From an uncultured Alphaproteobacteria bacterium (GTDB lineage Bacteria; Pseudomonadota; Alphaproteobacteria; RF32; CAG-239), in assembly GCA_944391695.1 (NCBI GenBank), contig CALXUO010000049.1, forward strand, positions 127-64,126: a stretch of DNA of 64,000 bases. The letters run 5' to 3'. The position numbers were made by a program, and so were the translations under genes. Each line of letters begins with the position of its first letter. Positions within the stretch are counted from its first letter, which is position 1. This document shows, piece by piece, positions 14,348 through 32,500 of this stretch. Under the pieces are notes generated by a model. The model saw only the letters and a program-made list of their open reading frames with translations, did no database searches and was not told the origin of the DNA.

Positions 14348-16669
14348 TTAATCTTTTAGAACACTATTTTGATAAGGGTCCACAAAATCATTGTCATCTG
14401 TATTATCAAATATATGAAATCTGTCGGAAATTTCTAACGGCGCCGTTTGATAAATCGGCGGATTGTCATCAACTACCTTTTCTTGACCGTATAAGTCACT
14501 GCTGCAAATATAGCTGTTGTCGCCTATTGCTTCCATATACGGTATCTCTTCTTGTTCATCATTAACATATACCCATTCCCAATCCTCATCCGCATTATCA
14601 TTGCTATTATCCGTAGGTGCCTCAGGTTTTTCTGGAACAGGACTAAAACCCCAATCCTCGCCGCTTGATGATATGGAAGAATCTTGGGCAATATCCGATG
14701 TTTCTTCAGATGTTTCTTCGCCACTCATTGATTGCTCTTCTTGTAAAATATTCTCTGCTTTGTCCTCAGAGGACAAAATATCATCAACTTTATTGGTCTT
14801 AAACGGAGATGGCGAATCCGACTTTGCTTCTTCTTGAGACGATAGCTCAGCAGAAATTGTTTCCTCAACGGGGCTGATTTCTTCTTCTAAAAATTTTGGC
14901 TGCGGCATCTCTGAAATAATATCATCCAGTGGTACAGTATCTTCTTTGCTTTCTGACACCAAATTATTTACAATTTCGTCTGTTTGTTTTTTCTTCTTCT
15001 TTTTTTTCTTTTTCTTTTTGACAGGCGCTTCCGCTTCTGAAAAATTATCTGTCGCAACTATTTCATTTATCTTTGCCGGTGTTGATGTTTCTTCTTCTGT
15101 TTCCCGAGGGATAAAATTATCAACGGTTTCACTTATGTTTTCCTCATTAACAATCTCCGAATTATAATTAGCACTTTCATAACTGTCTTCTGCCACATTA
15201 TTTAACGAGGCCTCATCCGTAATAAATTCTGACCGATTTTGATTATAAACGGGCGGTGCTACATTATAAACCGGTAAGCTTATTTCTTTAAGACTTTGTG
15301 CAAATATTTCTGCCAATTCTTTGGTTTGACGAGCACTTATCCTATCATAGAGCTTGCTTTGCTCTTTTATGGCTTTGGATATGGCTTTCTCAAGATTTTG
15401 ATCATTGGCTGCTTGCAAAGCTGATATTTTGTCAACCAATAACAATATCTGCGCTGAATTATCCGTTGTATTGATTTGAATATTGTTGGCATTATTGTTG
15501 GCTTGCGATGTGTTGTTTTGTTGAATGTTGGCTGATAATACCGCTTGTACCAATTTTTCTTGCGAATCGCCTATCAGTTTTAGTAATTTTTCGTCATTGG
15601 CCTCAAATCTTGAAACATTTGATGTGCCGATATTGATATTGCTTAAGCTTTTTATTACCTCTGTTTGTGATTTTTCAAACGCGGCAATAAGCTCTTTATT
15701 ATCGTTGGCCCTGCTTAATGATGTTGCTTCAACTTTATCAAGGCGTAAGTTTAGCTGCTTTTGCCCCTCTAAAACAACTTCTATCAGTTTTTGTGCAACG
15801 GTATCATTTGACGCTACATTATCAGAAGAGAGGGATTTTGATGGAAATGCTTGCGCAAAAGCTGCCAACGAAGCATTTATGGAATTTTGGCTTTGAGCAA
15901 TGGTTTGACATAATGCGCTGATTTCTTGATGCTGCTCTTCGCGCTCAATGCGATAATTTTCGGTTATGGTTTGGCATATATTTTTTAGCTCTCTGCTTTG
16001 CAAAACTGCTCCTATTTTGCTGCTGTCAGCTATTGTCTTACACAACGTGTTAATTTCTTGCCGTTGATCTTCGCGATTTTTTTCCATGCTTTGAGCCAGA
16101 TAAAGCTGAACTTTGCTTAAATCGGCCGTTAGTTTATCTAATCCTTCTTTTTGTGTGTTTGTTTGCTCTTCGATTAATCCGCCTATAATTTTGGCAAATT
16201 CGGCAGCAAAATCTTTATCTAAGCTAAGTTTGGACGGAGCTGCAACAACACCTACTCCATTGGCTCCGGAAAAAGCTTGCGGCTGGGGTTGTACCTGTAC
16301 TTGCGGCTGTGCCTGCGCTTGCGCTTTGGCCAATGCTGTTGCTAATATTTGAGCCTGTTGATGCGCCTCTTCGCTCATCTTGGGAGATGTTGTCGTGGTA
16401 TGAACAGATCTTTGGACACCACTTTTTTCAGCTAACTCATCGGCATAATCTTGAAGCATTGCCCCACCAGGAAGCGAGGAAAAAAGCCCCCTTATCTCTG
16501 GCGACAACTCCAATAGCATCTTATTGAAGCCTTCTTTGCGCTCCGGACTTAGGATGTGCATTTGGCGATAGATATTTAAAAACCTTTGCGCCACAACGAC
16601 TGGATCTTCTTCGCCGTTGCGCAAGGCTTTTCTGCGTGCTTCTGTTGTTTTATCCGATTCTAACGCCAT
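14348..16669 (-). CDS. hypothetical large acidic coiled-coil protein (no signal peptide)
   Basis: 773 aa. It contains an internal duplicated segment ('REDQRQEINTLCKTIADS' and 'REEQHQEISALCQTIAQS'), an 11-Lys run, and a very acidic D/E/S-rich C-terminal third. I see no Walker A motif. It lies immediately downstream of virB11. Confidence 0.5.
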   Translation of the reverse strand: MALESDKTTEARRKALRNGEEDPVVVAQRFLNIYRQMHILSPERKEGFNKMLLELSPEIRGLFSSLPGGAMLQDYADELAEKSGVQRSVHTTTTSPKMSEEAHQQAQILATALAKAQAQAQPQVQVQPQPQAFSGANGVGVVAAPSKLSLDKDFAAEFAKIIGGLIEEQTNTQKEGLDKLTADLSKVQLYLAQSMEKNREDQRQEINTLCKTIADSSKIGAVLQSRELKNICQTITENYRIEREEQHQEISALCQTIAQSQNSINASLAAFAQAFPSKSLSSDNVASNDTVAQKLIEVVLEGQKQLNLRLDKVEATSLSRANDNKELIAAFEKSQTEVIKSLSNINIGTSNVSRFEANDEKLLKLIGDSQEKLVQAVLSANIQQNNTSQANNNANNIQINTTDNSAQILLLVDKISALQAANDQNLEKAISKAIKEQSKLYDRISARQTKELAEIFAQSLKEISLPVYNVAPPVYNQNRSEFITDEASLNNVAEDSYESANYNSEIVNEENISETVDNFIPRETEEETSTPAKINEIVATDNFSEAEAPVKKKKKKKKKKKQTDEIVNNLVSESKEDTVPLDDIISEMPQPKFLEEEISPVEETISAELSSQEEAKSDSPSPFKTNKVDDILSSEDKAENILQEEQSMSGEETSEETSDIAQDSSISSSGEDWGFSPVPEKPEAPTDNSNDNADEDWEWVYVNDEQEEIPYMEAIGDNSYICSSDLYGQEKVVDDNPPIYQTAPLEISDRFHIFDNTDDNDFVDPYQNSVLKD
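14987..15019 (-). repeat. poly-lysine tract (11 K) encoded by a pure pyrimidine run on the + strand
   Basis: The + strand reads ttttcttcttcttttttttctttttcttttt and includes a T8 homopolymer at 15000-15007. It encodes 'KKKKKKKKKKK'. Confidence 0.85.
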
Positions 16670-16759: not shown

Positions 16760-17728
16760 TTAGGTGATTTCAGTAACCGCACGGAGGTTGCCGTCTCGAT
16801 TAATTTGGACAACTCTTAATTTTTGACGCATTTCTTCAATAGTTTTTTTGCGGTCAATAGTCGGATATGTATGCAAAATACGGTCCGTAAAGGCTTGATA
16901 GGCTGCCTCTGAGCTTTCGGCATGGATGGTGGCTAAACAGTTATCGTGACCTGATCCCATAAGCTCCCATATCGCTCCGGCATTGCTCGTGGATATTTCG
17001 CCTCCGATAATTGCATCGGGGGTAAAACGCACAACCAAGTCAATAACTTTGGCATAGGTTAAGGCGTTTGTTTGTTCGGTACGTGAAAGAGTAATATGAA
17101 CCCTGTTCTTATGCGGAACTATCAGCTCTCTGGTATCTTCTATAGTTAAAATACGTTTGTTGATATCAAGTATCTTCAATAAATTGTTTAAAAAAGTGGT
17201 CTTGCCGGTTGATGTAGCCCCTGATACTAAAATGTGATCCCCGCGCTTGATGCTTAGCAATAAGCGCTCGTATGGATCTTCGGGCTCTTTAATATCTTTA
17301 AGCGGGTTAATTTTATGCAATTTTTCACCCTGCAACAATCCATAATCTCCAAGACCAAAGGCTACGTCATCGGCATGGACACGAATCGTTAACGCTATGC
17401 CTCCGGTTAGGTCTTTATTGTCATACATTACATTCTTTCCGCAAATTGCCGAAAAGCGATGCTCGCCAGGAATAGTAGCATAAACAACCGGATTGCCTTG
17501 TATCGGGTCAAATGGAAGCTCATAGGTGTTGGCTATGATATACAGCAAATCAGTAAGGTATTCTTTACTTAGTTTTTCATCTTTATAAGCCATCCACGGA
17601 TAAGCTCTCTTGCCTCGCAATCTTAGCCATACCTCTCCGGCGTGATTAATTGCTACTTCTTCTATTCCCTCTTGTCCATACCAATAAGCAAGCGGCCTTA
17701 AAATTGATTCCAAAACGGTAAAACTCAT
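16760..17728 (-). CDS. virB11: VirB11-family secretion ATPase
   Basis: 322 aa. The Walker A is 'VSGATSTGKTTFLNNLL'. 'ILTIEDTRELI' is also present. The His-box region reads 'GSGHDNCLATIHAES'. The gene sits directly after virB10. Confidence 0.9.
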   Translation of the reverse strand: MSFTVLESILRPLAYWYGQEGIEEVAINHAGEVWLRLRGKRAYPWMAYKDEKLSKEYLTDLLYIIANTYELPFDPIQGNPVVYATIPGEHRFSAICGKNVMYDNKDLTGGIALTIRVHADDVAFGLGDYGLLQGEKLHKINPLKDIKEPEDPYERLLLSIKRGDHILVSGATSTGKTTFLNNLLKILDINKRILTIEDTRELIVPHKNRVHITLSRTEQTNALTYAKVIDLVVRFTPDAIIGGEISTSNAGAIWELMGSGHDNCLATIHAESSEAAYQAFTDRILHTYPTIDRKKTIEEMRQKLRVVQINRDGNLRAVTEIT

Positions 17729-17740: not shown

Positions 17741-20700
17741 TTAAAATAATGCCGGTATGCTGCTATCTGCATTGTTTGATGCTGAAGATTCCGATGAAGT
17801 GCTGCCTGCGGCCGGAATACTACCCGATGCCGGAGGAGGCGGGGGAACTATAGTATTGGTTGTCTTTTTTGGCGCCGTATCAACAATTAAAGGCGTTGTG
17901 CCAGAACTTGCTGCCTCTACTTTTACTTCATCCGGATCATATACGACTTGGCCTCCTGATGCTTTGGCTACATCTTCTCGTTTACGCTTATCAATCTCTT
18001 GTCCCGTTTTAACATCGTCTATAAATACCTCAGGTTTTTGGAATTTTTGAGATTCTTCACTATCCCGTTCAACGCTTCTTAACCACAAATCAACATTGGG
18101 ATAAACTATAATTCTAGTTCCGGCCGGAACATAGGTCATCGCCTTGACATCCGTCTTATCGGCTAAAATATCATCAAATAAACTTTCCATATCATCTAGG
18201 AAATTTTGTCGGGCGTCACTTGCCGCTTGTTGCTTTGATGTTTCAACTTCGCCGGCAGCATCATCGGCTGAAGCTATAAAATATGACGCCCCAGACGTTA
18301 ATACGGTTGTTACAACTGGCAAAGTATATTTCTTAAACAACTGCTGATCTACATAACCCAACGCTCCGGCTCTGCCTTGCGCATCTGCTGTTTGTCCGCT
18401 AAAGACAAAAATTGATCCATCTGGACGAATTAAACGCTCCCAAGTGATTTGAACGCGCGCCGATTCCGATGTCGCTTCCGCCGCTGCCGTAATACTGCCA
18501 AAAGTCCCTATCATTCGCGAACCTGCCGGAATAATCACATTACGCCCTTCTTCGGCATAAACATTTCGCTCGACGTAGGCAGTAATAGGTGCTGGATTAT
18601 TGGTATCTATTGCGCGGGCTATAACTGCAGGTATAGGTTTATCAGAGAAAATCATCTCGCTCATATCTACTCGCCATGATGAAATTGACTTCGGTATCCC
18701 TTGCTCCGACCAATCCTTTTGATAACCGTCAAACGCTTCTTTACGATAACCTGAGCTAATCTTTCCGACACTAATATTTTGCCGGCGCTCAAGCATGGCT
18801 GCATTTAAGGCGGCTTGACGTGTCGGATCATATCTTTCTCCAGGTCCATATCCGCCGCCGGGTCCCAAATTACCCGCCGGTCCGTTACCTACTCCATAAG
18901 CTCCACCGGGACCAAATGTTCCTGCCGGAATAAATACATCCTTCCCTTTTGAACCATCTGCTCTTTTTGACTTTCCTGAGTCTCCATAACTAAAATCTTC
19001 TGTGCCAATTACGTTGCCGTCATCATCTATAATCATGCCATCAGACATGCGATATCCTACTATATTGCCGTCTTTATCTATAACCACGTCATTTTCTAAA
19101 ATATCACCCAAATATTCTCCATCCGGTGTCAATGCTATACCTAAAGATTTATAATACTTTGAGCCTTCTAATAACTTTAGCGATGATGAAGCACCATCTT
19201 TTGTGCTGGGCCGGCTTTTGGTTGTTGACATAACTGAGCTTTTGGCAAACCAATTTTTATCTCTGCCCCCAATTATGTTGCCCTTGGAATCTACTAGCTC
19301 TCCTTTTTCGTTAAGACTACCAATAATTTTTCCCTGAGCATCAACAACATTACCTTCCCTATCAACATAGCCTATAATGTTACCATCTTTGTCATATATA
19401 TTGTCTTTGCCGCTGGTAGCACCATCCACCCGACCTATTATGTTACCATTGGCATCAATAAAATTCCCATTCTCATCTATACGCCCAATTATATTTCCGT
19501 TGGCGTCTATAATATTACCGTTTTCATCTACTCGGCCTATAATATTGCCATTGGCGTCAAGAAAGTTTCCATTTTCATCTATATAGCCTATGAGATTGCC
19601 GTTAGCATCATAGATGGCTTTTAAATTTTTATCCAATAGCGGAGAACCTTTGGGCGCAACACGCCCTATGATATTGCCATTAGCATCAATAAAATTCCCA
19701 TTCTCATCTATGCGGCCTATTATATTTCCGTTGGCGTCTATAATATTACCGTTTTCATCTACCCTACCTATGATGTTGCCATTGAGATCAAGAAAATTTC
19801 CGTCTTCATCTATATAGCCTATGAGATTGCCATTGGCATCATAGACTGCCCTTAAGTTTTTATCCGCCAAAGGAGAGCCTTTCTTGGCTACTCTCCCTAT
19901 TATGTTGCCGTTAAGATCGACTATGTTACCATTTTCGTCGATACGCCCGATTATATTACCGTTAGCGTCTACAATATTGCCGTTTTCATCCAAAAACCCT
20001 ATAAAATTGCCATTTTCATCAAAAATCATTTGACGCTTTAGCTGTGGTGACGATAAAGAACTGTAATATTGCAACGGTGTAGCCGTTGCTATAACTTCAG
20101 AATTGGCATTGAGTATCCTACCGGTAGCGCTGTCTAATGTCCCTACAACATTATTAAGATTGTCTAAAACTTTGCCGTCCAGTTTAAGTTGCCCTATCAC
20201 TAGTTTTGAGGCATCTCTTATGTTATAATCTCGATTGCCTCGGGCAACTACCTTCCCGCCTTTTATAACAAAACCTCTTTCAAAATCACCTAAATTTTGA
20301 TTGGTAAAACTTGAAACCTCTCCGTTACGATTTATGATACCGACAACTTTGCCGTCGTTGTCATAAACATAAAAATCATACAAAGCATATCCAATCTTTT
20401 GTTTGGATGATACAACATACCCATCAAAGTCAACTTGACCAATTTCTTTATGTTGACTATCTAAAACGCGCCCTTCTTTTGAAACATAGCCCATAAATTT
20501 GTTTTCAAGATCAAACGCTACTTTGTATTTCAACAAACTCCCCAGCGGTATACCGGAATTTGAATTTATATTGTCATTGGGTTGTTGATAGCCAATCAGC
20601 TTAGAGTTGATATCAACAACCAACCCGTTAACCACACTATAACCTATTATATTGCCATCGAAATCTATTGCCGCCTCGTATTCTATCGCTTTACCAATAA

Positions 20701-22786
20701 GTGCTTTATCTGCATTGCGCAATTGACCTTGTTTGTCTATACAACCTATTGTTTCTCCTCGTTCATTGCTTACTTTTCCGCTGTAATCTATGAAACCTAT
20801 TATCCTGCCGTTAAAATCTATTACCGGCGTCTTTTTTGCTTTATAGCCTAATAAAGACCCGCTGTCGCTGATGACATTTCCGTTTGCAAGAACTTTGCCG
20901 ATATATACACCGCGATAATTGTAAACCCCTCCGTTTGACGCTACCACTCCGACATTTTCACATTTGTCGTCTATAACACCCCCGTAGCTTGCCAGATATC
21001 CCATGATAATGCCTGAATTATCAAAAACATAACCTCTTTCCGCAACTTGACCGATTTTGGCTCCGCTTGAGTTGTTGACATTTCCTAATACATCGGCATA
21101 GCCTAAAAAATTACCTGAAAAATCCAATGCAATTATCTCTGAATAGGCCTCTCCTACTTTGGGAACATAATTTAAATTGCCAGAACTTATCTCGCTGACG
21201 CTGCCATCCGGCAAAATTTTGGCTACAGCATTAAATGACTTATTTAGCAATATGTTTTCTTCACTTACGCTCCCGATTTGCTCCCCTTTGGCATTAACTG
21301 CAAAAAATTCCGAAATATTTTTAGAAACCATTTGATTTTGGGAATTAAGAACATACCCCTCACCAACAACTCTTCCAAATTCCTCCCCTTTGGATGTTAC
21401 GGCTGAACCATTAAGACCTTGATATGCCGCCACACTACCAAATGGTGTATAGAAAGTGCTTAAATTGAGAGCTCGCCCTTCTATAGTACCTGATTGCCCA
21501 AAAACATACCCTTGTGGTGAAACAGATAACTTATTGCCCTTGTTATCTATGCTCGTATTTATACCGCTAACACCTAAAAATGCGCCGTCATTAGAAAAAA
21601 TAACCTTGGTATCCAATATCTTCCCTATTGAAATCCCTGAAAGATTATAGGCTATCTCTCCTATCATATAGCCAATCGTAGTGCCGCTTAAAGATATTAC
21701 CGATCCATTACTTAAGGCGTGACCTTTAAGCTCTCCTTTGTAGTCAAAAACAGGCCCGGTTTTTATCAAGTTGCCTATTATTTCTCCTGAGGCGTTGCTC
21801 ACTTGTCCTCGCGCACCCAAAATGCCGTTAGAACTGGTCCCTTTGGCTATTTCTCCTTCCGGAAGAAGACGCCCAAAATACCGTCCGGTTAAATCCGTTG
21901 CCGTCGAAGAGAAGTCTACTGTATAGCCTATTATGGCGTCGCTTATGTCAATTACTCTCCCATCGGCCCTTATCTTGCCAACGACTTTATTATTATTGAT
22001 GACCTCTCCGTTATAGCTGACAACGCCAAGATAAAATCCTTTATTATCAAACGCATAACCACTAACAACTATTTTGCCAATAATCGCTCCATTGCCATCA
22101 TAAACAAATCCGTTGGCTTTGATTTGACCTATGACTTTAGAATCAAAGTCCGTAACCTGGCCACCGGGAACAACACTACCTATAAATTCGCCGCTTAATG
22201 ATACAACCATCTTGGAAGAAATCAGACGTCCATCCAACAAATAATCACTGCCTATTTTCCTGTAGGCATAGCCATCCGGCGTTACAATTCCTATCTCTTG
22301 TCCACCCAAATTGGTGTACAAACCATCGCCGGTAACACGTCCAGCGATTTTTCCTTCATCATTATAGACTAGCCCCGGAAATATTACCTGCCCTAAAACA
22401 TCAAAATATTCATTAACAACTAACCCATTAGGCAAAGCCCGCCCTAAAACTTGCCCCGCAGCACTTAAAATAGAACCATCGCTGCTGACTTTACCCAAAA
22501 GACGCGCATCATTGCCTATGGCAACGCCCTGCGGCACAACGCCTCCAATAATTTCACCATCTGTATTAATTATAAGACTGTCTGCTGTAACGTTGCCTAA
22601 CAATTTATTATCAAAGCTTACGACCTTGCCGTCAGGTATTACTTTACCCAACGGCTCTCCATTGAAATTAATTGCCGTAATTTCTTGGGCATTGGCAAAA
22701 ACACTTGTAAACAACAACGCCAAAATAACCAGCATAATGTTGTTTAATAAAGAAAAATATTTTTTACAAGCCCTATATAAGCCCAT
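17741..22786 (-). CDS. virB10: giant VirB10 homolog: N-terminal TM anchor, a repeat array of about 1150 aa, a G/P-rich linker, and a VirB10 C-terminal barrel domain
   Basis: 1681 aa. The C-terminus 'ARVQITWERLIRPDGSIFVFSGQTADAQGRAGALGYVDQQLFKKY' and 'VIIPAGSRMIGTFGS' are VirB10/TrbI-like. The N-terminal anchor is 'MLVILALLFTSVFANA'. The body is a degenerate module of about 10 aa (for example 'DANGNIIGRIDENGNIVDLNGNIIGRV'). The linker reads 'GPGGAYGVGNGPAGNLGPGGGYGPG'. The gene lies between virB9 and virB11. Confidence 0.85.
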   Translation of the reverse strand: MGLYRACKKYFSLLNNIMLVILALLFTSVFANAQEITAINFNGEPLGKVIPDGKVVSFDNKLLGNVTADSLIINTDGEIIGGVVPQGVAIGNDARLLGKVSSDGSILSAAGQVLGRALPNGLVVNEYFDVLGQVIFPGLVYNDEGKIAGRVTGDGLYTNLGGQEIGIVTPDGYAYRKIGSDYLLDGRLISSKMVVSLSGEFIGSVVPGGQVTDFDSKVIGQIKANGFVYDGNGAIIGKIVVSGYAFDNKGFYLGVVSYNGEVINNNKVVGKIRADGRVIDISDAIIGYTVDFSSTATDLTGRYFGRLLPEGEIAKGTSSNGILGARGQVSNASGEIIGNLIKTGPVFDYKGELKGHALSNGSVISLSGTTIGYMIGEIAYNLSGISIGKILDTKVIFSNDGAFLGVSGINTSIDNKGNKLSVSPQGYVFGQSGTIEGRALNLSTFYTPFGSVAAYQGLNGSAVTSKGEEFGRVVGEGYVLNSQNQMVSKNISEFFAVNAKGEQIGSVSEENILLNKSFNAVAKILPDGSVSEISSGNLNYVPKVGEAYSEIIALDFSGNFLGYADVLGNVNNSSGAKIGQVAERGYVFDNSGIIMGYLASYGGVIDDKCENVGVVASNGGVYNYRGVYIGKVLANGNVISDSGSLLGYKAKKTPVIDFNGRIIGFIDYSGKVSNERGETIGCIDKQGQLRNADKALIGKAIEYEAAIDFDGNIIGYSVVNGLVVDINSKLIGYQQPNDNINSNSGIPLGSLLKYKVAFDLENKFMGYVSKEGRVLDSQHKEIGQVDFDGYVVSSKQKIGYALYDFYVYDNDGKVVGIINRNGEVSSFTNQNLGDFERGFVIKGGKVVARGNRDYNIRDASKLVIGQLKLDGKVLDNLNNVVGTLDSATGRILNANSEVIATATPLQYYSSLSSPQLKRQMIFDENGNFIGFLDENGNIVDANGNIIGRIDENGNIVDLNGNIIGRVAKKGSPLADKNLRAVYDANGNLIGYIDEDGNFLDLNGNIIGRVDENGNIIDANGNIIGRIDENGNFIDANGNIIGRVAPKGSPLLDKNLKAIYDANGNLIGYIDENGNFLDANGNIIGRVDENGNIIDANGNIIGRIDENGNFIDANGNIIGRVDGATSGKDNIYDKDGNIIGYVDREGNVVDAQGKIIGSLNEKGELVDSKGNIIGGRDKNWFAKSSVMSTTKSRPSTKDGASSSLKLLEGSKYYKSLGIALTPDGEYLGDILENDVVIDKDGNIVGYRMSDGMIIDDDGNVIGTEDFSYGDSGKSKRADGSKGKDVFIPAGTFGPGGAYGVGNGPAGNLGPGGGYGPGERYDPTRQAALNAAMLERRQNISVGKISSGYRKEAFDGYQKDWSEQGIPKSISSWRVDMSEMIFSDKPIPAVIARAIDTNNPAPITAYVERNVYAEEGRNVIIPAGSRMIGTFGSITAAAEATSESARVQITWERLIRPDGSIFVFSGQTADAQGRAGALGYVDQQLFKKYTLPVVTTVLTSGASYFIASADDAAGEVETSKQQAASDARQNFLDDMESLFDDILADKTDVKAMTYVPAGTRIIVYPNVDLWLRSVERDSEESQKFQKPEVFIDDVKTGQEIDKRKREDVAKASGGQVVYDPDEVKVEAASSGTTPLIVDTAPKKTTNTIVPPPPPASGSIPAAGSTSSESSASNNADSSIPALF
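19400..20030 (-). repeat. in-frame tandem repeat of about 231 bp (77 aa), about 2.7 copies, inside virB10
   Basis: 'atatagcctatgagattgcc' occurs at 19581 and 19812, an offset of 231. The flanking sequence aligns with few mismatches (not tallied). The protein units read 'YDANGNLIGYIDE[DN]GNFLD...GRVAPKGSPLLDKNLKAI'. Confidence 0.8.
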
Positions 22787-22788
22787 CT

Positions 22789-25700
22789 CTAATTCCTTTT
22801 GTTTTTGGCTACTTCGCCCAAAACATAACCTGAAACATTCTTATCCAAATCAATAAATGACCCATTGTTCTTAATGTAGCCAATATTCTCTCCTTGGGAA
22901 TTAATAACCGTTCCGTCTTGAGACAGCCTTCCTAAATACTGCCCGTCATTGCCCAAAACAGTAGCCCCTATTTTATAGACCTTGCCTAAAATACGGTTGT
23001 TTAAGTCTATTGCCAAGCCTCCGGATAATGTCTTGCCTATTATACTAGCATCTTTGCCTATAATTTTACCATCAAAATCTACATAACCCACAACTTTATC
23101 ATCGTTGGATATAATTATATCCCCAAAGACAACCTCTCCTATAAGCTTACCACTTATGCTCATCACATTGCCGTCTGATAAAACTTTGCCTAATGCTACA
23201 CCTGACATATCAGAAACAATACCGTCCGGAGCTACCGCCCCTATAACATTGCCTCCAAAATCTATAACAAACCCAGGATATAGTAAACTTAAATTCTTAT
23301 CACTGCTGCCGCCGGGAAGAACCGCTGTAATAATGTTGCCGTTTAGATCTATAACATCTCCCAATGAGTTCAAAAGCCCTTTATAGTTTCCCATGGCATC
23401 TACCATTATGCCCTCGGGGATTACTTCACCTATAATTTCGTCATCGCTGTTGACAACTTTTTTATCATGCGTTACCGAACCGATATTTTGTCCATCCAGA
23501 TTAATAACCCGACCATCAGATACCGCATATCCTAAGTATGATCCGTCATAACCTATGGCCGCTCCTCTGGCCACTATTCCGCCTTGATACTCACCCTTGA
23601 AATTAAAAAATTCACCTTTGGCATTGACCTTTCCCAACGTATCACCATAGCGACTAAATACCATGCCGTCTTCAACCGCCACTCCGACAACATCTCCTTT
23701 AAGGTTTATCACTTCTCCTACCGGAGAAAGAGCTCCATATATGTTGTTATATGCGCCAAATCCGCCATTCTTGATTAGTCCTTGAGATACGCCTTTATTA
23801 TCATAAATCTGACCATCGGGGAATAAACGCCCAATTAAATTACCTGATGAGCCTACAATTGCGGTTTTTGCCGGTACAGCGCTTCCGAGTATTCGATTTT
23901 TCTCGCCTAAAACCAAGTTGCTAGCAGAAAGTGTGGCTGACGGTTTTCCATAAATCCTAACTTGTGCTTTGTTATCAACCCGATTAATATATTCTCCAAC
24001 AGAAGTATAAGCATATCGCTCACCCAATACTCTGCCAATGTATGCTCCTTTGCTGTTAAATACATCGCCTAACAAACCAACACATCCAACCGGAAGCTTG
24101 GCGTCATTTACCACAACATTGTTAGCATTAACTTCTCCGAGATATTCGCCAGAAAGTCCCACCGCTGCTCCGGTTTTGCCTACAGCTCCTATAAAATTCC
24201 CTTTTTCATCTAAGACACTTCCGTCTGGGTTAACACAACCGATGTAACGGTTGTTTATATCTTTTACAATACCTGAATTGTCAACAATTCCTAAAAAATT
24301 ACAATCATTATCAAATACTCGTCCGACTTTTAGGGTTTCTCCCAAATATGTACCTTCAGAATTTATAACCGTACCCTCTGGAGTTATTTTATAGTTGGTT
24401 TCCTCATTGCCTTTTTTTATCTTTCCGTCTTTGTCAAGATAGCCTATTTGATTGCAGCCGTATCCTATAATGCTGCCAGCTCTTACCATCTTGGCAATCA
24501 CTTTTGATCCGTTGGCATCTTTAACCAATCCGTTGGGCAAAGCTCGGCCGACCACCTGTTTCTTATCATTTTCTATTGAGCCATCATTTTGCAACTCGCC
24601 TAAAAGCGTGCCTTGCGGAGTGATTGCTATTTTTTCAAAACTAACTAATTTACCGATGATGTTTCCGTCCTCATCAAAAAGTACTTCCTCCCCGACATAA
24701 CCTATAACATTTCCATTCAAATCAACCACTGTGCCATCAGGCAACATTTTGCCTATAATGTTACCGTTGGCATCTAACAGGTTGCCGTTTTCATCAACAT
24801 ACCCTATGATATTGCCGTATTTATCGTAAGCTACTCTGAGTTTCTTACCTTCAAGCGGAGAGTTTTTGGTTATAACGTTGCCGTTTTCATCAACATGGCC
24901 TATGATATTACCATCAGCATCAACAACACTGCCGTCCGGCAATACCACACCTAAAACTTTGCCGTTCTCATCCACCGCTACACGCCCCGGCTTGGTTACC
25001 GATCCAATAACGTTACCATTTAAATCTACAACTGTGCCATCAGGCAAAACTCTACCTATAACATTTCCATTTAAATCTACAACTGTGCCATCGGGTAAAA
25101 CACGCCCAATAATATTGCCGTTTTCATCATAAACAAATCCGGTTTCAACTGCCCGCCCAATAGGCTTTCCGTCCAAATCTACAACCGTGCCGTCAGGTAA
25201 CATTCGTCCAATGATATTGCCATCTAAATCTACAACCGTACCATCAGGATTAACATATCCTATCAAGTTTCCAAATTCATCATAAACCGCACGGCGATTC
25301 TCGGCAACCCCCATCACATTTCCGTCTTTATCCAAAATTAGGCCATCAGGACTTACTCGGCCTATGATGTTTCCATTGGCATCTCTTGCATATCCATCCT
25401 CATCTATAATTCCTATAGTCTTCCCATCAGGACCTATAGCATAACGTGTTGCTTTGTGTTGCCCTCCGGAATCGCCGGGTGAAACAGGTTCGCAGTAATT
25501 ACAATCTTCTTTGGTTACTGCCGAACCTGTAACCGGAACCTTGGCCGCCTTAACACTTTCTTTGCCCAAATTAAGTTCATGCCAAGATACTATGAAGTTA
25601 TTTTGCACATTGCCCGCAACAACCGGAGTCCAACTCATTGTAATATGGCAGGTTTCATCTCCGGTTAGTGTCCTACTTGTGCAATTATCATTATATGTAA

Positions 25701-26088
25701 ATCCTGCCGCAGGAGGATCTGCCAACTCAACCGAAACTATTTTGATAGACGCTTTGCCGTTGGTTCCCAATGTTAAAACATTTTTTGCCTCTGTACCTAA
25801 AACAACCTCTCCCATCGGAACAGGATCCGGTGTGGTCGTAAGCGGTATTTCACCCTCTACGGTAGAAAATTCTATACTTTGCGTTGTTGTCGTTGTCGGA
25901 ATATCGCCAAAAACATCCGCATTATCGGTAAATATCGGCTCTTCATATTCCTCAACATCATTTCCACTTTTGATAAGCAAAATTAAACCGAAAATAAAAA
26001 TAAACAACGAGGAAAGACCAATCATCAAAATGATGTTATTGGTCTTTTTTACGTATTTTTCGGAATGTGTTAACGGCTCTTTGCTCAT
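22789..26088 (-). CDS. membrane-anchored repeat protein that shares the VirB10 repeat module but has no VirB10 barrel
   Basis: 1099 aa with TM helix 'IILMIGLSSLFIFIFGLILLI'. A beta-rich segment 'KASIKIVSVELADPPAAGFTYNDNCTSRTLTGDETCHITMSWTP' looks Ig/PapD-like. About 850 aa of 'PDGTVVDLNGNVIGRVL'-type repeats follow. It is inserted between virB9 and virB10, with a stop-to-start gap of 2 nt. Confidence 0.7.
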   Translation of the reverse strand: MSKEPLTHSEKYVKKTNNIILMIGLSSLFIFIFGLILLIKSGNDVEEYEEPIFTDNADVFGDIPTTTTTQSIEFSTVEGEIPLTTTPDPVPMGEVVLGTEAKNVLTLGTNGKASIKIVSVELADPPAAGFTYNDNCTSRTLTGDETCHITMSWTPVVAGNVQNNFIVSWHELNLGKESVKAAKVPVTGSAVTKEDCNYCEPVSPGDSGGQHKATRYAIGPDGKTIGIIDEDGYARDANGNIIGRVSPDGLILDKDGNVMGVAENRRAVYDEFGNLIGYVNPDGTVVDLDGNIIGRMLPDGTVVDLDGKPIGRAVETGFVYDENGNIIGRVLPDGTVVDLNGNVIGRVLPDGTVVDLNGNVIGSVTKPGRVAVDENGKVLGVVLPDGSVVDADGNIIGHVDENGNVITKNSPLEGKKLRVAYDKYGNIIGYVDENGNLLDANGNIIGKMLPDGTVVDLNGNVIGYVGEEVLFDEDGNIIGKLVSFEKIAITPQGTLLGELQNDGSIENDKKQVVGRALPNGLVKDANGSKVIAKMVRAGSIIGYGCNQIGYLDKDGKIKKGNEETNYKITPEGTVINSEGTYLGETLKVGRVFDNDCNFLGIVDNSGIVKDINNRYIGCVNPDGSVLDEKGNFIGAVGKTGAAVGLSGEYLGEVNANNVVVNDAKLPVGCVGLLGDVFNSKGAYIGRVLGERYAYTSVGEYINRVDNKAQVRIYGKPSATLSASNLVLGEKNRILGSAVPAKTAIVGSSGNLIGRLFPDGQIYDNKGVSQGLIKNGGFGAYNNIYGALSPVGEVINLKGDVVGVAVEDGMVFSRYGDTLGKVNAKGEFFNFKGEYQGGIVARGAAIGYDGSYLGYAVSDGRVINLDGQNIGSVTHDKKVVNSDDEIIGEVIPEGIMVDAMGNYKGLLNSLGDVIDLNGNIITAVLPGGSSDKNLSLLYPGFVIDFGGNVIGAVAPDGIVSDMSGVALGKVLSDGNVMSISGKLIGEVVFGDIIISNDDKVVGYVDFDGKIIGKDASIIGKTLSGGLAIDLNNRILGKVYKIGATVLGNDGQYLGRLSQDGTVINSQGENIGYIKNNGSFIDLDKNVSGYVLGEVAKNKRN

Positions 26089-26096
26089 CTTGATTT

Positions 26097-27743
26097 TTAT
26101 TGTGTCCTTACTACGCTGCAGAATATACCGTTACGTCCAAGTCTACTGCATATCCTATCCCCTTCGCTAAGATTTTTAATCGGCCCTACACGTAAATGAA
26201 AAAGCTCTTTACCTTTGCCGTCAGCTGGTGCGTCCACCGAGAAAAACGGCGTAAGTCCATTTAATTCTCCGCTATAGGTTGATGATAAGCGGCTCCACAG
26301 AGATTCCAGATTGCTCACATCTCCATCTGCGCCAAGCTCTATTGAAATAGTCGAATTATCTCCATCGCTAAATCCTTTGCCATAGCCATATTGCGACAAG
26401 CCTGAATTTTTATACTGCGATTGGTCAAAGCTTTGTTGCTGGTTTGCCGTTGTATTACTGATACGCTGCATCTTAGAATAGTCAAAACTATCTGCAATAT
26501 TGCCATTTTGCGGATAATTATCGTTGGTGTATTCTGGAACAATAATCTGGCTTTGCCCCATCTGGATATCAACCTGGCCGGGCATAGCACTCATCCCTTG
26601 ACCGCCACCTAAGGATGCACCGCCCCCCATCATTTGAGCTCCGAAAGCGGACGAGTTTATCCCCATCGTCTGCTGATTGGGAATTGTCGGACCAACTTGC
26701 CATGTCGGCGGCATATAATCGCTTGAGTCAATAGCAAATTCCAAACCGCTCTCATTAGAACGGCGCATCTTAATACAAATTATGCGTTTACCGTTACGAA
26801 GCACCATATCACCCACGCCCTCAACTATAATCAATCTGTTATCCGGACCTTTGGTTCTAAATCCTACCGGCACTTCAACCCTCTCAACAATCATGCTAAC
26901 AACAGGCCTTTGGGTCATGTTAAGCGCTTTTTTGCCTAAATCAATATAGGTAAAGATATTATCGCGCCATACTCTTTCAGGGGCAATTACCACATCATCA
27001 GGATTGGGAACATATACCTCCAAATCAAACCTAAACTCACTCGGATCAACAGGTATTGTCTTGAGCCAATCTGATTTTTGCAAGCGCCTAGTATAGGTTG
27101 CATCAACTGACTTATTACCACTTGAAGAACCTCCGCTTGAGCCACCAGCAAACGGTGTTGACCCACCGGAGCCTGATGGCGCATATTCGTCAACGACATC
27201 TATATCAATGATGGCGTTAGTTAGACGCTCGGTATTTACAGCCTCTGATTTAACATAAAACACATAACGATTACCTGAGCGCCCAAAAACGATAACATTA
27301 GTATCAACCCCTACATTGGCTCCTCTTTTAGGGTATAATAACAAAGTGCTGGGACCTGATATCTGTCCGTCAAATGTAGCACTATCTCCAATAAAAATAT
27401 CCTCTATCAGCTCCCATTCAGGGAAGTTTACCATGGTGATCATCCCCTCGCGCACACGAATCGGCAAAACCAAATCAGGCGTCCAGTAATACCTCGAATA
27501 TGCAGGCTTGCTTTGTCCCTCGCCCAGATTTTGCAACGGATCAAGCCAGGCCGCCTGTGTCATACCCAAAGAATTGAAACCAGCGTACCCCATATTCATC
27601 GGCGTATAGTTACCCTGCGCTTGCTCAGCGCTGGCGTCCATCATTTGCTGATCCACTTGCGCTAAAACCGACTGCGTTAATACCAAAAGAACCGTCGCCA
27701 CCAATAATAAAATTTTTATTTTTACTCTATCTCTCACGTTCAA
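26097..27743 (-). CDS. virB9: VirB9 homolog fused to a low-complexity linker and a C-terminal SPOR-like domain
   Basis: 548 aa with signal peptide 'LLLVATVLLVLTQSVLAQ'. The N-domain 'LPIRVREGMITMVNFPEWELIEDIFIGDS...NRYVFYVKS' and the C-domain 'PERVWRDNIFTYIDLGKK...PVVSMIV' are VirB9-like. The G/Q/M/S-rich linker is about 170 aa. The last 85 aa, 'LFHLRVGPIKNLSEGDRICSRLGRNGIFCSVVR', match the SPOR consensus pattern. Confidence 0.8.
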   Translation of the reverse strand: MNVRDRVKIKILLLVATVLLVLTQSVLAQVDQQMMDASAEQAQGNYTPMNMGYAGFNSLGMTQAAWLDPLQNLGEGQSKPAYSRYYWTPDLVLPIRVREGMITMVNFPEWELIEDIFIGDSATFDGQISGPSTLLLYPKRGANVGVDTNVIVFGRSGNRYVFYVKSEAVNTERLTNAIIDIDVVDEYAPSGSGGSTPFAGGSSGGSSSGNKSVDATYTRRLQKSDWLKTIPVDPSEFRFDLEVYVPNPDDVVIAPERVWRDNIFTYIDLGKKALNMTQRPVVSMIVERVEVPVGFRTKGPDNRLIIVEGVGDMVLRNGKRIICIKMRRSNESGLEFAIDSSDYMPPTWQVGPTIPNQQTMGINSSAFGAQMMGGGASLGGGQGMSAMPGQVDIQMGQSQIIVPEYTNDNYPQNGNIADSFDYSKMQRISNTTANQQQSFDQSQYKNSGLSQYGYGKGFSDGDNSTISIELGADGDVSNLESLWSRLSSTYSGELNGLTPFFSVDAPADGKGKELFHLRVGPIKNLSEGDRICSRLGRNGIFCSVVRTQ

Positions 27744-28484
27744 CTACTCCACCTTGTTGCGGCTTAACGCATATCTTAACACCGTAAATCCGACCGGATT
27801 TTTTAACCTGTCGTCATACTTAACCTTTTTGCGACGATAGCCGACATTCAATGATGCCGTCCAATAACCTATCTCCGGCTCAGTAGAATCCGGATACATA
27901 TCCCTTGTTTCATATTCAACCTGCCAAATACCGTCTGTCAACTCATTAACTGACAAAATCTTTACCGTGCGTTCAAAACCTTTATTCTTGATAAGACTAA
28001 TCGCTTTGGTCGCAACATTATCCAAAAAATCCTGATAAACACGATTATCCGACATCTCTTGTATAGGGCCGCCCGGCATCCATCTGGCCTCAACCTCAGA
28101 AACATCGCTACTGAAAGTACTGCGCAAGAGAACATACTCCCTTACAAACACCTCGGTAATCGCTTTACGATTGCGCAATTCCGTCGTGAGTGGCTGAATA
28201 TTATAAACTTGTTCGGAACGATTTTGAAACGTAAGCAAAAACGGCTCAACCCTATATAGCGGAACAACTTGGAAAATAGCCAGAATCAACACGATATTGC
28301 AACACAAACTAACCGCCGTAATTACTGCAAACGCTCTAGCTGTCCACAAATAGCGTTTTTCAGCAATGTTGGCAACAAAAATATCCTCACCTGCGCTTTT
28401 TGATGAAGAGCCACGCCCAGGTATGCGGCGACGCCCCTCCAAAAGCCTTGACTGCGGTTTATCCTGTCCGATTTCTTCCACCAT
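27744..28484 (-). CDS. virB8: VirB8 homolog (paralog 2)
   Basis: 246 aa. An N-terminal cytoplasmic stretch is followed by the TM helix 'AFAVITAVSLCCNIVLILAIFQVVPL', then 'VEPFLLTFQNRSEQVYNIQPL' and 'ITEVFVREYVLLRSTF', which are typical VirB8 periplasmic-domain motifs. Confidence 0.8.
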   Translation of the reverse strand: MVEEIGQDKPQSRLLEGRRRIPGRGSSSKSAGEDIFVANIAEKRYLWTARAFAVITAVSLCCNIVLILAIFQVVPLYRVEPFLLTFQNRSEQVYNIQPLTTELRNRKAITEVFVREYVLLRSTFSSDVSEVEARWMPGGPIQEMSDNRVYQDFLDNVATKAISLIKNKGFERTVKILSVNELTDGIWQVEYETRDMYPDSTEPEIGYWTASLNVGYRRKKVKYDDRLKNPVGFTVLRYALSRNKVE

Positions 28485-28505: not shown

Positions 28506-28694
28506 CTATATCGTTGCGACAAACCAATCAGGCAGAGTCTTCGGCAACTCTACCTCCATACAGGCGCACGGCGATAATTTAAGCTCATCGTTGCCGGAAC
28601 CTATACCTATAGGCTCAGGCTCGTAATAAGAACCATAGCAGCCCGATAACACAAATAAAACAAACAGAATCAATATTTTACATCTTGTTTTCAT
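28506..28694 (-). CDS. virB7: VirB7-like small lipoprotein
   Basis: I trimmed the ORF to the ATG at 28694 (AGGAGG upstream). It is 62 aa, with 'MKTRCKILILFVLFVLSGC' carrying an LSGC lipobox. It sits between two virB8 paralogs and upstream of virB9, as rvhB7 does in Rickettsiales. Confidence 0.6.
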   Translation of the reverse strand: MKTRCKILILFVLFVLSGCYGSYYEPEPIGIGSGNDELKLSPCACMEVELPKTLPDWFVATI

Positions 28695-28799
28695 GAGAAA
28701 CAACCCTCCTTAAGGGGTTAATATATAGCACTATAGATAGTATGAAATTATACCGTTTTATTTTAAATGTCTAACAGCTTAGATATACTTATCAACAAA

Positions 28800-29573: not shown

Positions 29574-32500
29574 TTAATAGTTTGCACAGTAGGGATCTTC
29601 TGAGTCATTATAATCTTTAGAATCTTCTTTTAAACTATTTTTATATTTATCTACAACGGCGCTGTCGGCTTCAGCCTTTTTTAGATCTGCATCAATATCG
29701 TTGCTGTCGGCCGTGGTGGGTGATATACGCATCAAACCTTCGGTGTCTTTTTTCATGGTGGAGATAAGCTTATCTAGTATCTCTACTTTCTCTTTAGCCG
29801 GCTCATTATCTGTTTGATCTACCCCCGACAAATCTTTTGAAGCTTTGTCTATTTGCTTATTTTTAATTTCTTTTATCTTTTTTACTGCCAATTGATAATC
29901 GGAATCATTGCGCAAATCAAAATCATCCGACGGTGTAAAGCCATAGCTTATAAGCGTTTCTTTTAGCTCGTCTAGGCTCTCGTTATATTTTTTTCTGTAT
30001 TCTTCCAGATTTTCCCGTTGCAGCTTCTCATTCTCGACAAAGTACAAGAAATCTCCTATCTGATTGCGCGACAATGCCGCAAAATTTGCCGAGGCAACTT
30101 CGTCTTTCTTGTTATCGTTAAGATCTTCTCCTTCATCTTCGCCCAAATGTCTATATGCCTCAAAAGCCCTTTTCCTAAATTGCAAATTGTTATTATCATC
30201 AGCTTCAAGCAACATCCCGAGTTCGCTGTAAGTGCACTCCGGATCTGCTGCTTCTTCATTTGAAAAAAATGTTGATCCGAATTTCACCGGAGAATCAAAT
30301 ATCGTATGATATGGTTTGCCGTTTTCCATCTTTATCAGCATACAATCAGATAATTCTGATACATTTAAATCCGTGCGATACAAAAATTCACCCTTACTGT
30401 TTACATCCAAAACTTTTGACGTGCCTTTAATCTTACACGGCATTATGCCTCCACGAGAAAAAGCAACATCCACACAGCCGTTATCCAGCGCTTCTTTCAG
30501 GTTATACTCTGCCTCAATAAAAGCATGATCTTTTAGCATATACTGCCAAATAAGCGGTATGTCGCCACCATAGTTCAAAAAGTCGGAAGCGGTTATATTG
30601 CGGTCTTTTTTATTTTTGATAACCGGTTTGACGTTGGCAAAATCGGTGGCGTCAAAGTGAAAAACCTCTCGAACATGCGGAAGATTAAAGTTTGGAATGG
30701 CAAACGGCGCTTTCAAATCTCTTTCTTTGGCCGTGGCTCCGATAAAGAAACCTTCCGTTTCGGCTTTAGTGTCTGCAGATAGTAATGCCGCATAAACTGC
30801 TATATTACTCAACCTGGCAAAGCCTGCAACATTGTAGCTGATGGTTAAAGCCTTAATCCTGTCAATCATCTGCTGATGTATTCTTACAACCTCTGAATGT
30901 GTTGCCGGATTGTATAACTTGTCTTTAAGCCCCAGTATTTCGTTATAGCCTTCATCAACAACAACATCTACCATTTCATAAAGATTAACCAAGGCTCTGT
31001 CGGCCTCTTCTCTGGCCTTTTTTATTAATGCATCGGGATCTATTAAAGGATTGTCTTCAACCATTTCGGCAATTATGGCTCGCAAATTTTTTGAAACATC
31101 CTCCGAATATTGCTGAGAACTTTTTTGTATGCTCTCGTTCCATTCTGCCTGAAGCGAGAGGACGTTTGACAAACCTGCTGCCATACTTGAGGTGGCTGCA
31201 TCTTGAGCTGCCAATTTTGCCAGGGCTATTTCTTCATCAATTGCATCAAGCTGAGCCTGATACCCGTCAAGTTGGGCTTTGTTTGATGTTATTGTCGCTT
31301 CCAGTCCGGAAATCTTACTCTCATCAGTTTCATCTTTTTTTGCCTCGGAAACAGCTGTGTTTAGCTCCTCAACTCCCAAAATCTTGTCTTCAACCGTATC
31401 CGTAGTGTTTTCACTATCAGAGTATACAACCTTGGCGGTTACTTTAGCTTCTATTGCCTGTGTTGCTTTGTTTTCGGCAACGGATCTGATATCGGCAATT
31501 TCATTACTGCTGTCGCTTATAACTTTATTAACAGCATCCATTTGGGCAATTATTTGTGAACGTTGGGCTTCCAGCCCGGAAACTGCTTCTTGCCCCGAAC
31601 TGCTGCTTTGCGCGTTAGATATAACTTCGCCTCTGGCTTGAACTATTTCGGCCGATGCTTTATCCCTGGCCTCTTGGAGCTGTTGTTGATATTTGGTTTT
31701 TGATATATCTTGACTTTCACCCTTGAGTTTGGCCACAACAAGAGCTAAAACATCATCGCTGGTATAGCCTTTGAGATAGGATTTAATATTTTCATATTTG
31801 CGCCGCAAATATTGCTGATAAAAATTTTTGGTGTCCGTCCAAACAAGTGATTTTTTGCCTTGTTCTCCCCATTGAGAAGCATTTTCTCCAAGTGTTTTGG
31901 CGGCCTCAGCTCCGATTTGCCAAGCAAGTAACGCTGATTCTCTCCCCTCTTTTTGGGATTCTTCCTGTTTGCTTGCATCTACCGAAACCTTAACTGCTTG
32001 GCCTTCTTTCTCTGCTTTGCTCATGTCTGGATCATCCAAAAGATCTGCTTTCTTTTCATCATCAATTGAGGTTTGTGCTATATCTTCTGCCGTTATGGTT
32101 GATGTCTCGGCGGCTTTGGCTGTTTCGTATGCTTCTATCGCCCAAGCCGAAATCCCGCTTCGTAAATCATGATTGTTTACATTTTCTCCCAAATTGCCTC
32201 CGGACCATACATCCGCCGAATTATTAAAATATTCTCCGATATAGTTAGCGGCACATTGATCGGAAATAGATAATTTTTGTAGTACCGTTTCATGGTCTCT
32301 TTCCATCTCGGCAAGTTGATCTGCCACTTGTTTATAGCCTTTTAGGGAGCTGAGAATATTGTGTATTTGCATTGCTACATTAACTTCATCTTCAATTTCT
32401 TTAAGATTATCAAGTGTTTCCAGCTTGCTCTCAGCCTTTATAAGCGGATGTTCATTATCGGGCTCTTCGGGAGAGACGAATTCTACCGTTTGTTTAACAA

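Follow-up and report, generated by a model that had tools for sequence, protein, structure and literature searches.

Locus and gene order

We analysed a stretch of 64,000 nt of DNA (hereafter the window) from an uncultured alphaproteobacterium of the Genome Taxonomy Database (GTDB) lineage RF32, CAG-239 (assembly GCA_944391695.1, contig CALXUO010000049.1, positions 127 to 64,126), and describe here two adjacent genes of a type IV secretion system (T4SS). The downstream gene encodes a protein of 1681 amino acids (aa) that ends in a VirB10 domain, and the upstream gene encodes a protein of 1099 aa, here called the partner, that shares with it a very long hairpin repeat. The coordinates and lengths of both open reading frames (ORFs) are exactly those given in a preliminary description of this DNA, which had been made from the sequence without database searches. 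The stop codon of the partner gene and the start of the VirB10 gene are 2 nt apart, and AAGGA lies shortly upstream of the VirB10 ATG.

Both ORFs are located within a long same-strand T4SS island that has housekeeping genes on both flanks, and the T4SS to which they belong is chromosomal. The island comprises two VirB2-like pilin genes, VirB4, several large secreted proteins without assignment, two VirB8 paralogs with a 65-aa lipoprotein gene between them, VirB9, the partner, VirB10, VirB11 and several VirB6/TrbL-like proteins. The genes next to the pair and the segments of the two proteins are listed in Table 1.

Table 1. Position of the two ORFs, their direct neighbours and the segments of the two proteins in the window
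Feature	Protein residues	Window position	Strand	Remarks
VirB11 ATPase		16760..17728	-	T2SSE E = 7e-22; TIGR02788 E = 1.7e-39
VirB10 ORF, putative C-terminal half		17741..22786	-	1681 aa, 174 kDa mature; TrbI and Bflower domains
Partner ORF, putative N-terminal half of split VirB10		22789..26088	-	1099 aa, 115 kDa
VirB9/CagX homolog with C-terminal SPOR domain		26097..27743	-	548 aa; Pfam CagX E = 6.6e-13; SPOR 22.1 bits (cut-off 21)
Cytoplasmic tail (MSKExLTHS[DE][KR]YV[KR]KTN) and single transmembrane helix	Partner 1-40	25969..26088	-	Ortholog conservation, AlphaFold2
Ig-like (ASH/PapD/MSP-type) beta-sandwich	Partner 95-175	25564..25806	-	Invariant Cys136 and Cys147, then invariant CxxC 196-199
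Variable-length array of clean 17-aa hairpins (e.g. LPDGTVVDLNGNVIGRV)	Partner 215-480	24649..25446	-	
Fixed-length divergent hairpin block ending EVAKN[RK]RN	Partner 481-1099	22792..24648	-	
Predicted Sec signal peptide, cleavage between ANA and QE	VirB10 1-33	22688..22786	-	Motif in orthologs
Fixed-length divergent hairpin block, ~51 hairpins	VirB10 34-905	20072..22687	-	
Variable-length array of clean hairpins	VirB10 906-1215	19142..20071	-	Includes 77-aa (231-bp) tandem unit
Last three-hairpin module, Gly-rich linker (FGPGGAYG...GPGGGYGPGERYDP) and pre-barrel segment	VirB10 1216-1374	18665..19141	-	
TrbI/VirB10 beta-barrel with two-helix antenna	VirB10 1375-1573	18068..18664	-	Pfam, PDB search, Foldseek
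Low-complexity Pro/Ser tail ending P[AQ]LF	VirB10 1574-1681	17744..18067	-	

The C-terminal domain of the 1681-aa protein

The C-terminus of the 1681-aa protein had been described as VirB10-like, and sequence and structure searches agree. The Pfam profile TrbI (PF03743) matched residues 1379-1569 over profile positions 2-188 of 188 (E = 2e-34; 119.5 bits, cut-off 35). A sequence search of the Protein Data Bank (PDB) with the last 402 residues found ComB10 (2bhv) at 4.8e-19, as well as CagY, TraF, TrwE and Xanthomonas VirB10. The AlphaFold2 (AF2) model of residues 482-1681 was matched by Foldseek to the VirB10 C-terminal domains of six systems with E = 3e-9 to 1e-4; TrwE, X. citri VirB10, CagY and TraF were found at E = 3e-9 to 5e-7 with target-normalised template modelling scores of 0.56-0.62, and the C-terminal domain of DotG (9ngw, 7muq) was also among the matches. 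Inside the barrel the model predicts two helices at 1481-1504 and 1517-1544 (model residues 1000-1023 and 1036-1063), as in the antenna of VirB10, with a predicted local distance difference test score (pLDDT) of 50-84, and the gene lies between virB9 and virB11 as expected of a family member. The NCBIfam equivalogs of VirB10/ComB10 (NF038091, NF038092) matched below their cut-offs (97.4 bits against 220 and 108.7 bits against 300), and the 1681-aa protein is therefore a divergent member of the VirB10 family rather than an equivalog. The cytoplasmic tail and inner-membrane helix that canonical proteins carry in the same chain as TrbI are absent from the VirB10 ORF, and both are found in the upstream ORF.

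The shared repeat

The motif [DNEQ]xxGxhhG was counted in both proteins and in shuffled sequences. It occurs 26 times in VirB10 35-1270 (0.7 +/- 0.9 in shuffles) and 18 times in partner 215-1099 (0.6 in shuffles), which makes the hairpin-tip motif, with its period of 17 aa, 30 to 40 times as frequent as in shuffled sequences. No copy is present in the TrbI part or in the first 214 residues of the partner, and a related motif gave at most two matches in each of the other reading frames of the window. The preliminary description had proposed a degenerate module of about 10 residues common to both proteins. The sharing is real and far above chance, but the unit is a 17-residue hairpin, corresponding to what was there called a paired unit, since the commonest distance between motifs is 17 and the autocorrelation of glycine is 0.44-0.68 at lag 17, decaying via 34, 51 and 68. 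In the AF2 models each unit consists of a strand of 5 residues, a turn of 4, a strand of 3 and a turn of 5. The repeat extends roughly over VirB10 35-1263 and partner 215-1089, together about 2,100 aa, and amounts to about 72 hairpins in VirB10 and 52 in the partner, or about 124 in total.

The repeat had not been recognized as a named family; this does not hold, as both proteins scored well above the Pfam cut-offs of the beta-flower families Bflower_2 (PF21785; VirB10 286.3 bits, partner 212.3 bits, cut-off 38) and Bflower (PF21784; 152.2 and 85.1 bits, cut-off 25). The loose resemblance to DUF3659 suspected earlier proved to be a clear match (PF12396; 91.5 and 84.8 bits, cut-off 24.8; E = 3e-26 and 3.6e-24). 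The beta-flower fold was defined in 2023 from AlphaFold models by its [DNEQ]xxG hairpin tip, with no relative in the PDB and no known function (Durairaj et al., 2023; PMC10584680). The same tip motif is present in both proteins, and Foldseek searches with both models found no solved structure resembling the repeat part. A 77-aa super-unit and recurring dips of pLDDT in the variable array of VirB10 point to four-hairpin modules; when a super-period of four to six hairpins was sought in the fixed blocks by autocorrelation, only 17 aa and its multiples appeared. Pfam at E values up to 1 returned no pentapeptide-repeat and no CagY-repeat family, and no CagY or DotG match was obtained outside the C-terminal domain, in agreement with the earlier statement that this repeat differs in sequence type from those of CagY and DotG.

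That the repeat array is an artefact of assembly, a possibility raised in the preliminary description, was considered and rejected. The sole repeat at the DNA level is one of 231 bp in 2.5 copies with 80% identity, located by Tandem Repeats Finder at 19434-20022, and the other units are too diverged to collapse. In addition, the lengths of the fixed blocks agree within a few residues among independent assemblies, and the gene order is the same across the clade. The 231-bp tandem unit is recent. Over both repeat genes (18000-28000) the GC skew of the plus strand is strongly negative (-0.20 to -0.32); we suspect that this is due to a G-rich coding strand (Gly, Asp and Val codons) and is not a replication signal.

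Anatomy of the two proteins

The 17-residue cytoplasmic tail is the best-conserved part of the partner, with a mean identity of 78.5% over its orthologs. It is followed by a hydrophobic run of 21-25 residues in 73 out of 73 orthologs, and AF2 predicts a helix at 11-39. The next domain was modelled by AF2 as a beta-sandwich (101-171) and matched by Foldseek to the Ig domains of HYDIN, CEP192, MSP and VesC with a probability of 1.0; the Pfam family ASH gave E = 5e-5, which is below its cut-off, and the match to NCBIfam choice-of-anchor D was weak. The models, structural matches and orthologs thus bear out the transmembrane anchor and Ig-like segment recorded in the preliminary description. The variable array that follows ranges from 264 to 729 aa in orthologs; a local 17-mer hidden Markov model scored 14-23 bits per unit over most of it, and its pLDDT is about 70-80, dipping at linkers. 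In contrast to this variable array, the fixed block is 618-630 aa long in 27 of 28 aligned sequences; its pLDDT is 85-93, and it contains four invariant Cys. Residues 900-1099 are better conserved than the middle of the partner, and 66 of 73 orthologs share one C-terminal octapeptide. The predicted template modelling score of the entire partner is 0.68.

A single N-terminal transmembrane helix had been noted in the VirB10 ORF, which now appears doubtful. At position 27-36, 76 of 80 VirB10 orthologs carry [AVTL]x[AS] directly before QEITA. The n- and h-regions of the leader are only 28% identical, and the residues after the motif (QEITAI[DN]FNG) are invariant. Because a small-x-small motif precedes an invariant mature start while the leader itself is unconserved, the leader is most likely a cleaved Sec signal peptide and not a transmembrane anchor. 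The fixed block of VirB10 is 867-872 aa long (standard deviation 2 aa) in 16 of 16 aligned split-form sequences, whose overall identity is 49-92%. Residues 34-200 are 76.6% identical, compared with 80% in the TrbI core, and pLDDT is about 90 over the modelled part of the block (541-911).

The variable array of VirB10 is 146-500 aa long in orthologs, and its pLDDT dips every 50-80 aa or so, from which we infer that it may be made of four-hairpin modules joined by short linkers. The linker region after it has near-invariant columns at 1287-1321 and a pLDDT of about 30 in the linker. At the C-terminus, 39 of 80 orthologs end in PALF and 38 in PQLF (17744-17755, minus strand, in the window), and in most unsplit relatives described below an unconserved tail rich in Pro and Ser likewise finishes with an aromatic residue.

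Distribution and synteny

More than 1,000 relatives of the 1681-aa protein were found, and each of the best 120 contains Bflower and TrbI, is 1,450-1,830 aa long and shows 44-73% identity over the aligned part. A locus scan with one genome per species found 317 encoding stretches. Nearly all of the 80 best loci are from metagenome-assembled genomes (MAGs) labelled Alphaproteobacteria, proteobacterium, Rhodospirillales or 'Azospirillum sp.', including CAG:495 and Candidatus Scatocola, which were obtained from the gut and rumen of human, ruminants, rabbit, chicken and mouse. We take these MAGs to represent the gut lineage RF32 of GTDB.

In every fetched locus with enough flanking sequence the order is 1,300-aa protein, VirB8, VirB8, VirB9, partner, VirB10, VirB11, and in all 71 of the 71 fetched loci in which both genes are complete it is VirB9-partner-VirB10-VirB11. 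Mostly 1-3 nt separate the two genes of the pair, and VirB11 identity across the fetched loci is 80-99%. Since the order did not differ at any locus with sufficient flank, the pair characterizes the clade as a whole, and the split layout is conserved over hundreds of species.

The relatives are unnamed in the databases or called 'hypothetical' or 'DUF3659 domain-containing protein', and one ortholog of the partner is named 'YD repeat-containing protein' (Joint Genome Institute). An exact-sequence look-up gave no name or accession for either protein and no match for the sequence of the partner, and a plasmid search with the partner returned only five weak partial matches, to Rhs and Ig proteins, and nothing comparable. 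These results give no sign that the partner belongs to a common, already annotated T4SS accessory family, which would have spoken against the earlier interpretation.

Unsplit relatives and the origin of the split

Some VirB10 relatives are not divided. These include P0167 and P0181 (about 1,500 aa) and the representatives P0250-P0289 (1,930-2,406 aa), which were found by a search with the TrbI domain. They carry in one chain a partner-like tail, a transmembrane helix, an Ig-like domain, repeats and TrbI, and they too have clean arrays at both ends. A search with the N-terminus of an unsplit form brought up only four fragments, none of them named. The N-terminal domain of P0167 and P0181 and the Ig-like domain of the partner are homologous, and only the partner and the unsplit forms have the conserved cytoplasmic tail. 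In a colinear alignment to the unsplit forms, the partner corresponds to residues 1 to about 1090 and the VirB10 ORF to about 370 to the end. At the two unsplit loci that were examined (L081 and L082), the order is VirB8(-VirB8)-VirB9-long VirB10-VirB11, and no partner gene is present. Given that unsplit relatives carry the N-terminus of the partner and TrbI in one chain and have no partner gene, sequence comparison identifies the partner as the detached N-terminal half, and the pair as one VirB10 in two pieces. The preliminary description had seen in the 1099-aa protein a dedicated paralogous partner of VirB10; the shared repeat was confirmed, but the unsplit relatives point to the N-terminal half of VirB10 itself and not to an added accessory.

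A bootstrap neighbour-joining tree was built from TrbI cores of about 220 residues, with ordinary VirB10 proteins of 370-680 aa as outgroup. The repeat-bearing VirB10 proteins formed one clade in 96 of 100 replicates, and the split forms were monophyletic in 94. In the full neighbour-joining tree the split forms are nested in the repeat-bearing clade, whose basal members are the unsplit P0167 and P0181; since the split forms are nested, the tree indicates that the split state is derived.

Other features of the island

Several further features were observed around the pair. A SPOR (peptidoglycan-binding) domain, as found here, is unusual in VirB9, and suggests that the core complex is tied to the cell wall. 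The 65-aa ORF between both VirB8 paralogs (28506-28703, minus strand) has a lipobox (LSGC) and probably encodes a lipoprotein of the VirB7 type; at comparable positions the unsplit loci L081 and L082 have small genes of 63-65 aa. Four weak VirB6/TrbL-like proteins (842, 434, 783 and 650 aa) and a 641-aa protein with multiple transmembrane segments are encoded at 2097-10253 and 53388-55340 (minus strand), and VirB8 is duplicated, an expansion of VirB6/TrbL-like proteins and VirB8 that presumably resembles the rvh system of Rickettsiales. At 43247-48807 (minus strand) lie the two VirB2/TrbC-like pilin genes (125 and 167 aa) and, downstream, a gene for a 1486-aa secreted protein, which contains a weak internal TrbC-like segment (residues 709-748).

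Between virB4 and virB8 (29574-40300, minus strand) are several large ORFs (1308, 649 and 721 aa) whose products have signal peptides and match no family, and these may be extra structural parts or effectors; the position of the 1308-aa protein is kept in every related locus, with an identity of only 25-66%. After virB11, where virD4 usually sits, there is a 773-aa ORF (14348-16669, minus strand) that matches nothing in Pfam or NCBIfam and lacks both a Walker A motif and a transmembrane segment, and its relatives are not always next to virB11 in other genomes. The sole plus-strand gene within about 46 kb of minus-strand genes (10657-11628) encodes a 323-aa protein with two HTH_3 domains, which may regulate the island. 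A few kb from the T4SS island, a type IVb pilus-like cluster on the plus strand (57315-62320) encodes a TcpQ-like protein, a secretin and a PilO-like accessory protein.

A proposed divided envelope-spanning subunit

VirB10 is the only T4SS subunit known to extend from the inner membrane as far as the outer one, and it is believed to relay energy-dependent signals to the outer-membrane pore. We propose that the two genes encode one such envelope-spanning VirB10, which was enlarged by beta-flower/DUF3659 repeats and then divided, and that its halves dock with each other in the periplasm; we give this reading a probability of roughly 60%. The more general claim of the preliminary description, that the envelope-spanning subunit has been elaborated, is supported.

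The partner would keep the N-terminal functions of VirB10, namely the cytoplasmic tail, one inner-membrane helix and the periplasmic Ig-like domain. The VirB10 half would be exported by Sec and lose its signal peptide, and its TrbI barrel and antenna would join VirB9 and a VirB7-like lipoprotein in the outer-membrane core complex. The parts of the pair follow each other in a symmetric order: anchor, Ig-like domain, variable array, fixed block of about 620 aa, break, fixed block of about 870 aa, variable array, Gly-rich linker and barrel. Non-covalent docking of the fixed blocks in the periplasm would restore the link between the membranes, with the variable arrays as spacers or tethers to each membrane. 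One pair of partner and VirB10 has a mass of about 290 kDa. The core complexes of solved systems contain 13-17 copies; ring copies of the pair would build a scaffold of about 4 MDa around the channel, comparable in scale to Cag or Dot/Icm.

Several observations argue for an interface at the break. The two termini that the split created hardly vary (EVAKNRRN-COOH and QEITAI[DN]FNG), and the blocks beside the break are fixed in length (867-872 and 618-630 aa), in contrast to the membrane-proximal arrays, which range from 146 to 729 aa. The peaks of conservation are the partner tail, the first 170 or so mature residues of VirB10 and the termini made by the split, and the confidence of AF2 is highest in the fixed blocks (pLDDT 85-93). 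The invariant Cys of the Ig-like domain and the fixed blocks fit an oxidising compartment.

Other points weigh against this proposal. The mutual binding of the halves is our inference, and the cleavage of the signal peptide is predicted from a motif; should the leader instead remain as an anchor, VirB10 as well as the partner would be tethered to the inner membrane. The tree is distance-based and covers about 220 residues. In the unsplit forms the central block appears shorter than in the pair (about 950 aa compared with 1,490 aa), and their repeat blocks are not mappable one-to-one onto the pair: window- and block-wise BLAST of the pair against unsplit forms gave promiscuous off-register matches, and only the termini and clean arrays could be placed. 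As the repeat blocks align off-register, the split may have arisen either by a simple fission or by a tandem duplication followed by reciprocal loss. If extended, about 124 hairpins would probably be longer than the periplasm is wide, and the assembly would then have to be compact or partly outside the cell; the hairpins may either close into shallow beta-flower barrels of 8, 10 or 12 strands or form a continuous superstructure. Finally, VirD4 and a relaxase were looked for across the window and none was found.

Alternatively, the hairpin arrays, chiefly the variable ones, might be displayed on the cell surface, as proposed for the repeats of CagY, and form an adhesin or a structure for contact with host or prey whose copy number shifts by recombination. 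Array length does vary strongly among species, from 146 to 500 aa in VirB10 and from 264 to 729 aa in the partner, one array holds the recent 231-bp tandem duplication, the organisms live in animal guts, and it has been argued for DotG and CagY that their variable repeats are host-exposed (PMC6761968). We nevertheless consider display rather unlikely, given that the bulk of the repeats is found in fixed-length blocks under purifying selection and is not hypervariable, and that, save for the one 2.5-copy unit, the arrays are too diverged at the DNA level for frequent recombination. Moreover, all repeats are N-terminal to the TrbI barrel and, in the partner, follow directly after the inner-membrane anchor, a location that lies in the periplasm in the VirB10 systems solved so far.

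The choice between a cleaved leader and a kept one bears on another explanation, in which the leader of VirB10 is an uncleaved signal-anchor and the partner a duplicated periplasmic ring component beside a complete VirB10, so that both are inner-membrane-anchored paralogs. In Dot/Icm, the inner-membrane partner DotF is encoded beside DotG. The N-terminus of VirB10 does have a basic n-region and a hydrophobic stretch, and the total repeat length of the pair is greater than that of the unsplit forms. In four of the ten unsplit forms tested, the start of the VirB10 fixed block best matched position ~360, a region also covered by the partner, which fits duplication. The conserved AxA at -3/-1 before the invariant +1 residue, together with a short (about 10-14 residues) and unconserved hydrophobic core, is instead the signature of a cleaved signal peptide, and the confinement of the conserved cytoplasmic tail to the partner and the unsplit forms also goes against two complete paralogs; we give this explanation a low probability.

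The SPOR domain of the adjacent VirB9, which suggests contact with the wall, raises the question of whether the arrays bind peptidoglycan or fix the machine in the sacculus, the bridging of the halves being secondary. We regard this as improbable: the literature found reports no peptidoglycan binding by beta-flower or DUF3659 proteins, thousands of residues per protomer are far above known wall anchors, and the conserved termini at the break would be left unexplained. That the partner is an Rhs/YD-repeat toxin or a secreted substrate merely within the operon, as matches to RHS_repeat (59 bits, cut-off 22) and YD_repeat_2x (62 bits, cut-off 15.8) and the name of one ortholog might suggest, was rejected as scarcely credible, because only these short repeat models match, neither an Rhs core nor a toxin domain is present in the partner, whose last 8 residues are conserved, Rhs cores in the PDB reach only E ~0.9 with no Rhs among the Foldseek matches, and the protein is anchored in the membrane at its N-terminus, lies between virB9 and virB10 at all fetched loci with sufficient flank and is fused to TrbI in relatives.

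Going beyond a divided VirB10, the system might be a third, independently evolved class of expanded T4SS beside Cag and Dot/Icm, in which inner and outer halves reassemble via the ~620- and ~870-aa blocks into a multi-MDa hairpin cage (about 4 MDa at 14 copies). We put this forward tentatively, as an idea that has the odds against it. If it is true, adjustable hairpin tethers would set the distance to each membrane, and separate halves could let the outer-membrane complex assemble alone or engage the inner-membrane motor reversibly.

Comparison with known systems

A naturally cut VirB10, conserved across hundreds of gut and rumen species, tests the need for covalent continuity in this subunit. 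It places the beta-flower/DUF3659 repeat inside a defined machine, adds a third repeat type, after CagY and DotG, for enlarging VirB10, and points to a large and distinctive secretion apparatus in widespread uncultured Alphaproteobacteria of animal guts, which is of interest to T4SS structural biology. The literature on RF32 secretion systems and on VirB10 in MAGs of gut Alphaproteobacteria yielded no description of this layout, and that on the repeat families (DUF3659 and beta-flower) consisted of the beta-flower paper and a fungal lipid-droplet preprint only, with no mention of a T4SS context.

Described beta-flowers (PF21784, PF21785 and PF21786; clan CL0395) and DUF3659 (PF12396) have in common with the pair a hairpin repeat with a [DNEQ]xxG tip. 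However, each of the described beta-flowers is one small domain that comprises 4, 5 or 6 hairpins in about 96-116 aa, and some are lipoproteins (PMC10584680), whereas here about 52 and 72 hairpins are concatenated on a T4SS subunit. Canonical VirB10 and its counterparts TraF (pKM101), TrwE (R388) and ComB10 share the TrbI barrel, the two-helix antenna and the position between virB9 and virB11, but they are proteins of 370-680 aa with a Pro-rich linker and no hairpin repeats, and a single chain holds both anchor and barrel.

DotG/IcmE of the Legionella/Coxiella Dot/Icm system is similar to the pair in having a C-terminal TrbI/VirB10 domain after a long repeat region of variable length, and its N-terminal membrane anchor is a further likeness; the length of the protein differs between species, from about 1,000 aa to over 1,500 aa (PMC6761968). 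Its repeats are pentapeptides on one polypeptide, whereas those described here are 17-residue beta-flower/DUF3659 hairpins on a split protein, with a repeat mass several times larger (about 2,100 aa). CagY (HP0527) of Helicobacter pylori is likewise a giant VirB10 homolog (1,927 aa) with repeats N-terminal to TrbI and an expanded outer-membrane core complex, and its C-terminal domain matches the one described here by sequence and fold. The repeat regions of both CagY and DotG vary between strains, and the CagY repeats are remodelled by within-gene recombination (PMC6761968). The repeats of CagY are of a different sequence type and the protein is unsplit, whereas most of the repeat region described here is fixed in length and positionally conserved. 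Repeat-expanded VirB10 proteins are therefore already known from CagY and DotG, and what is new here is the fold of the repeat, its scale and the split.

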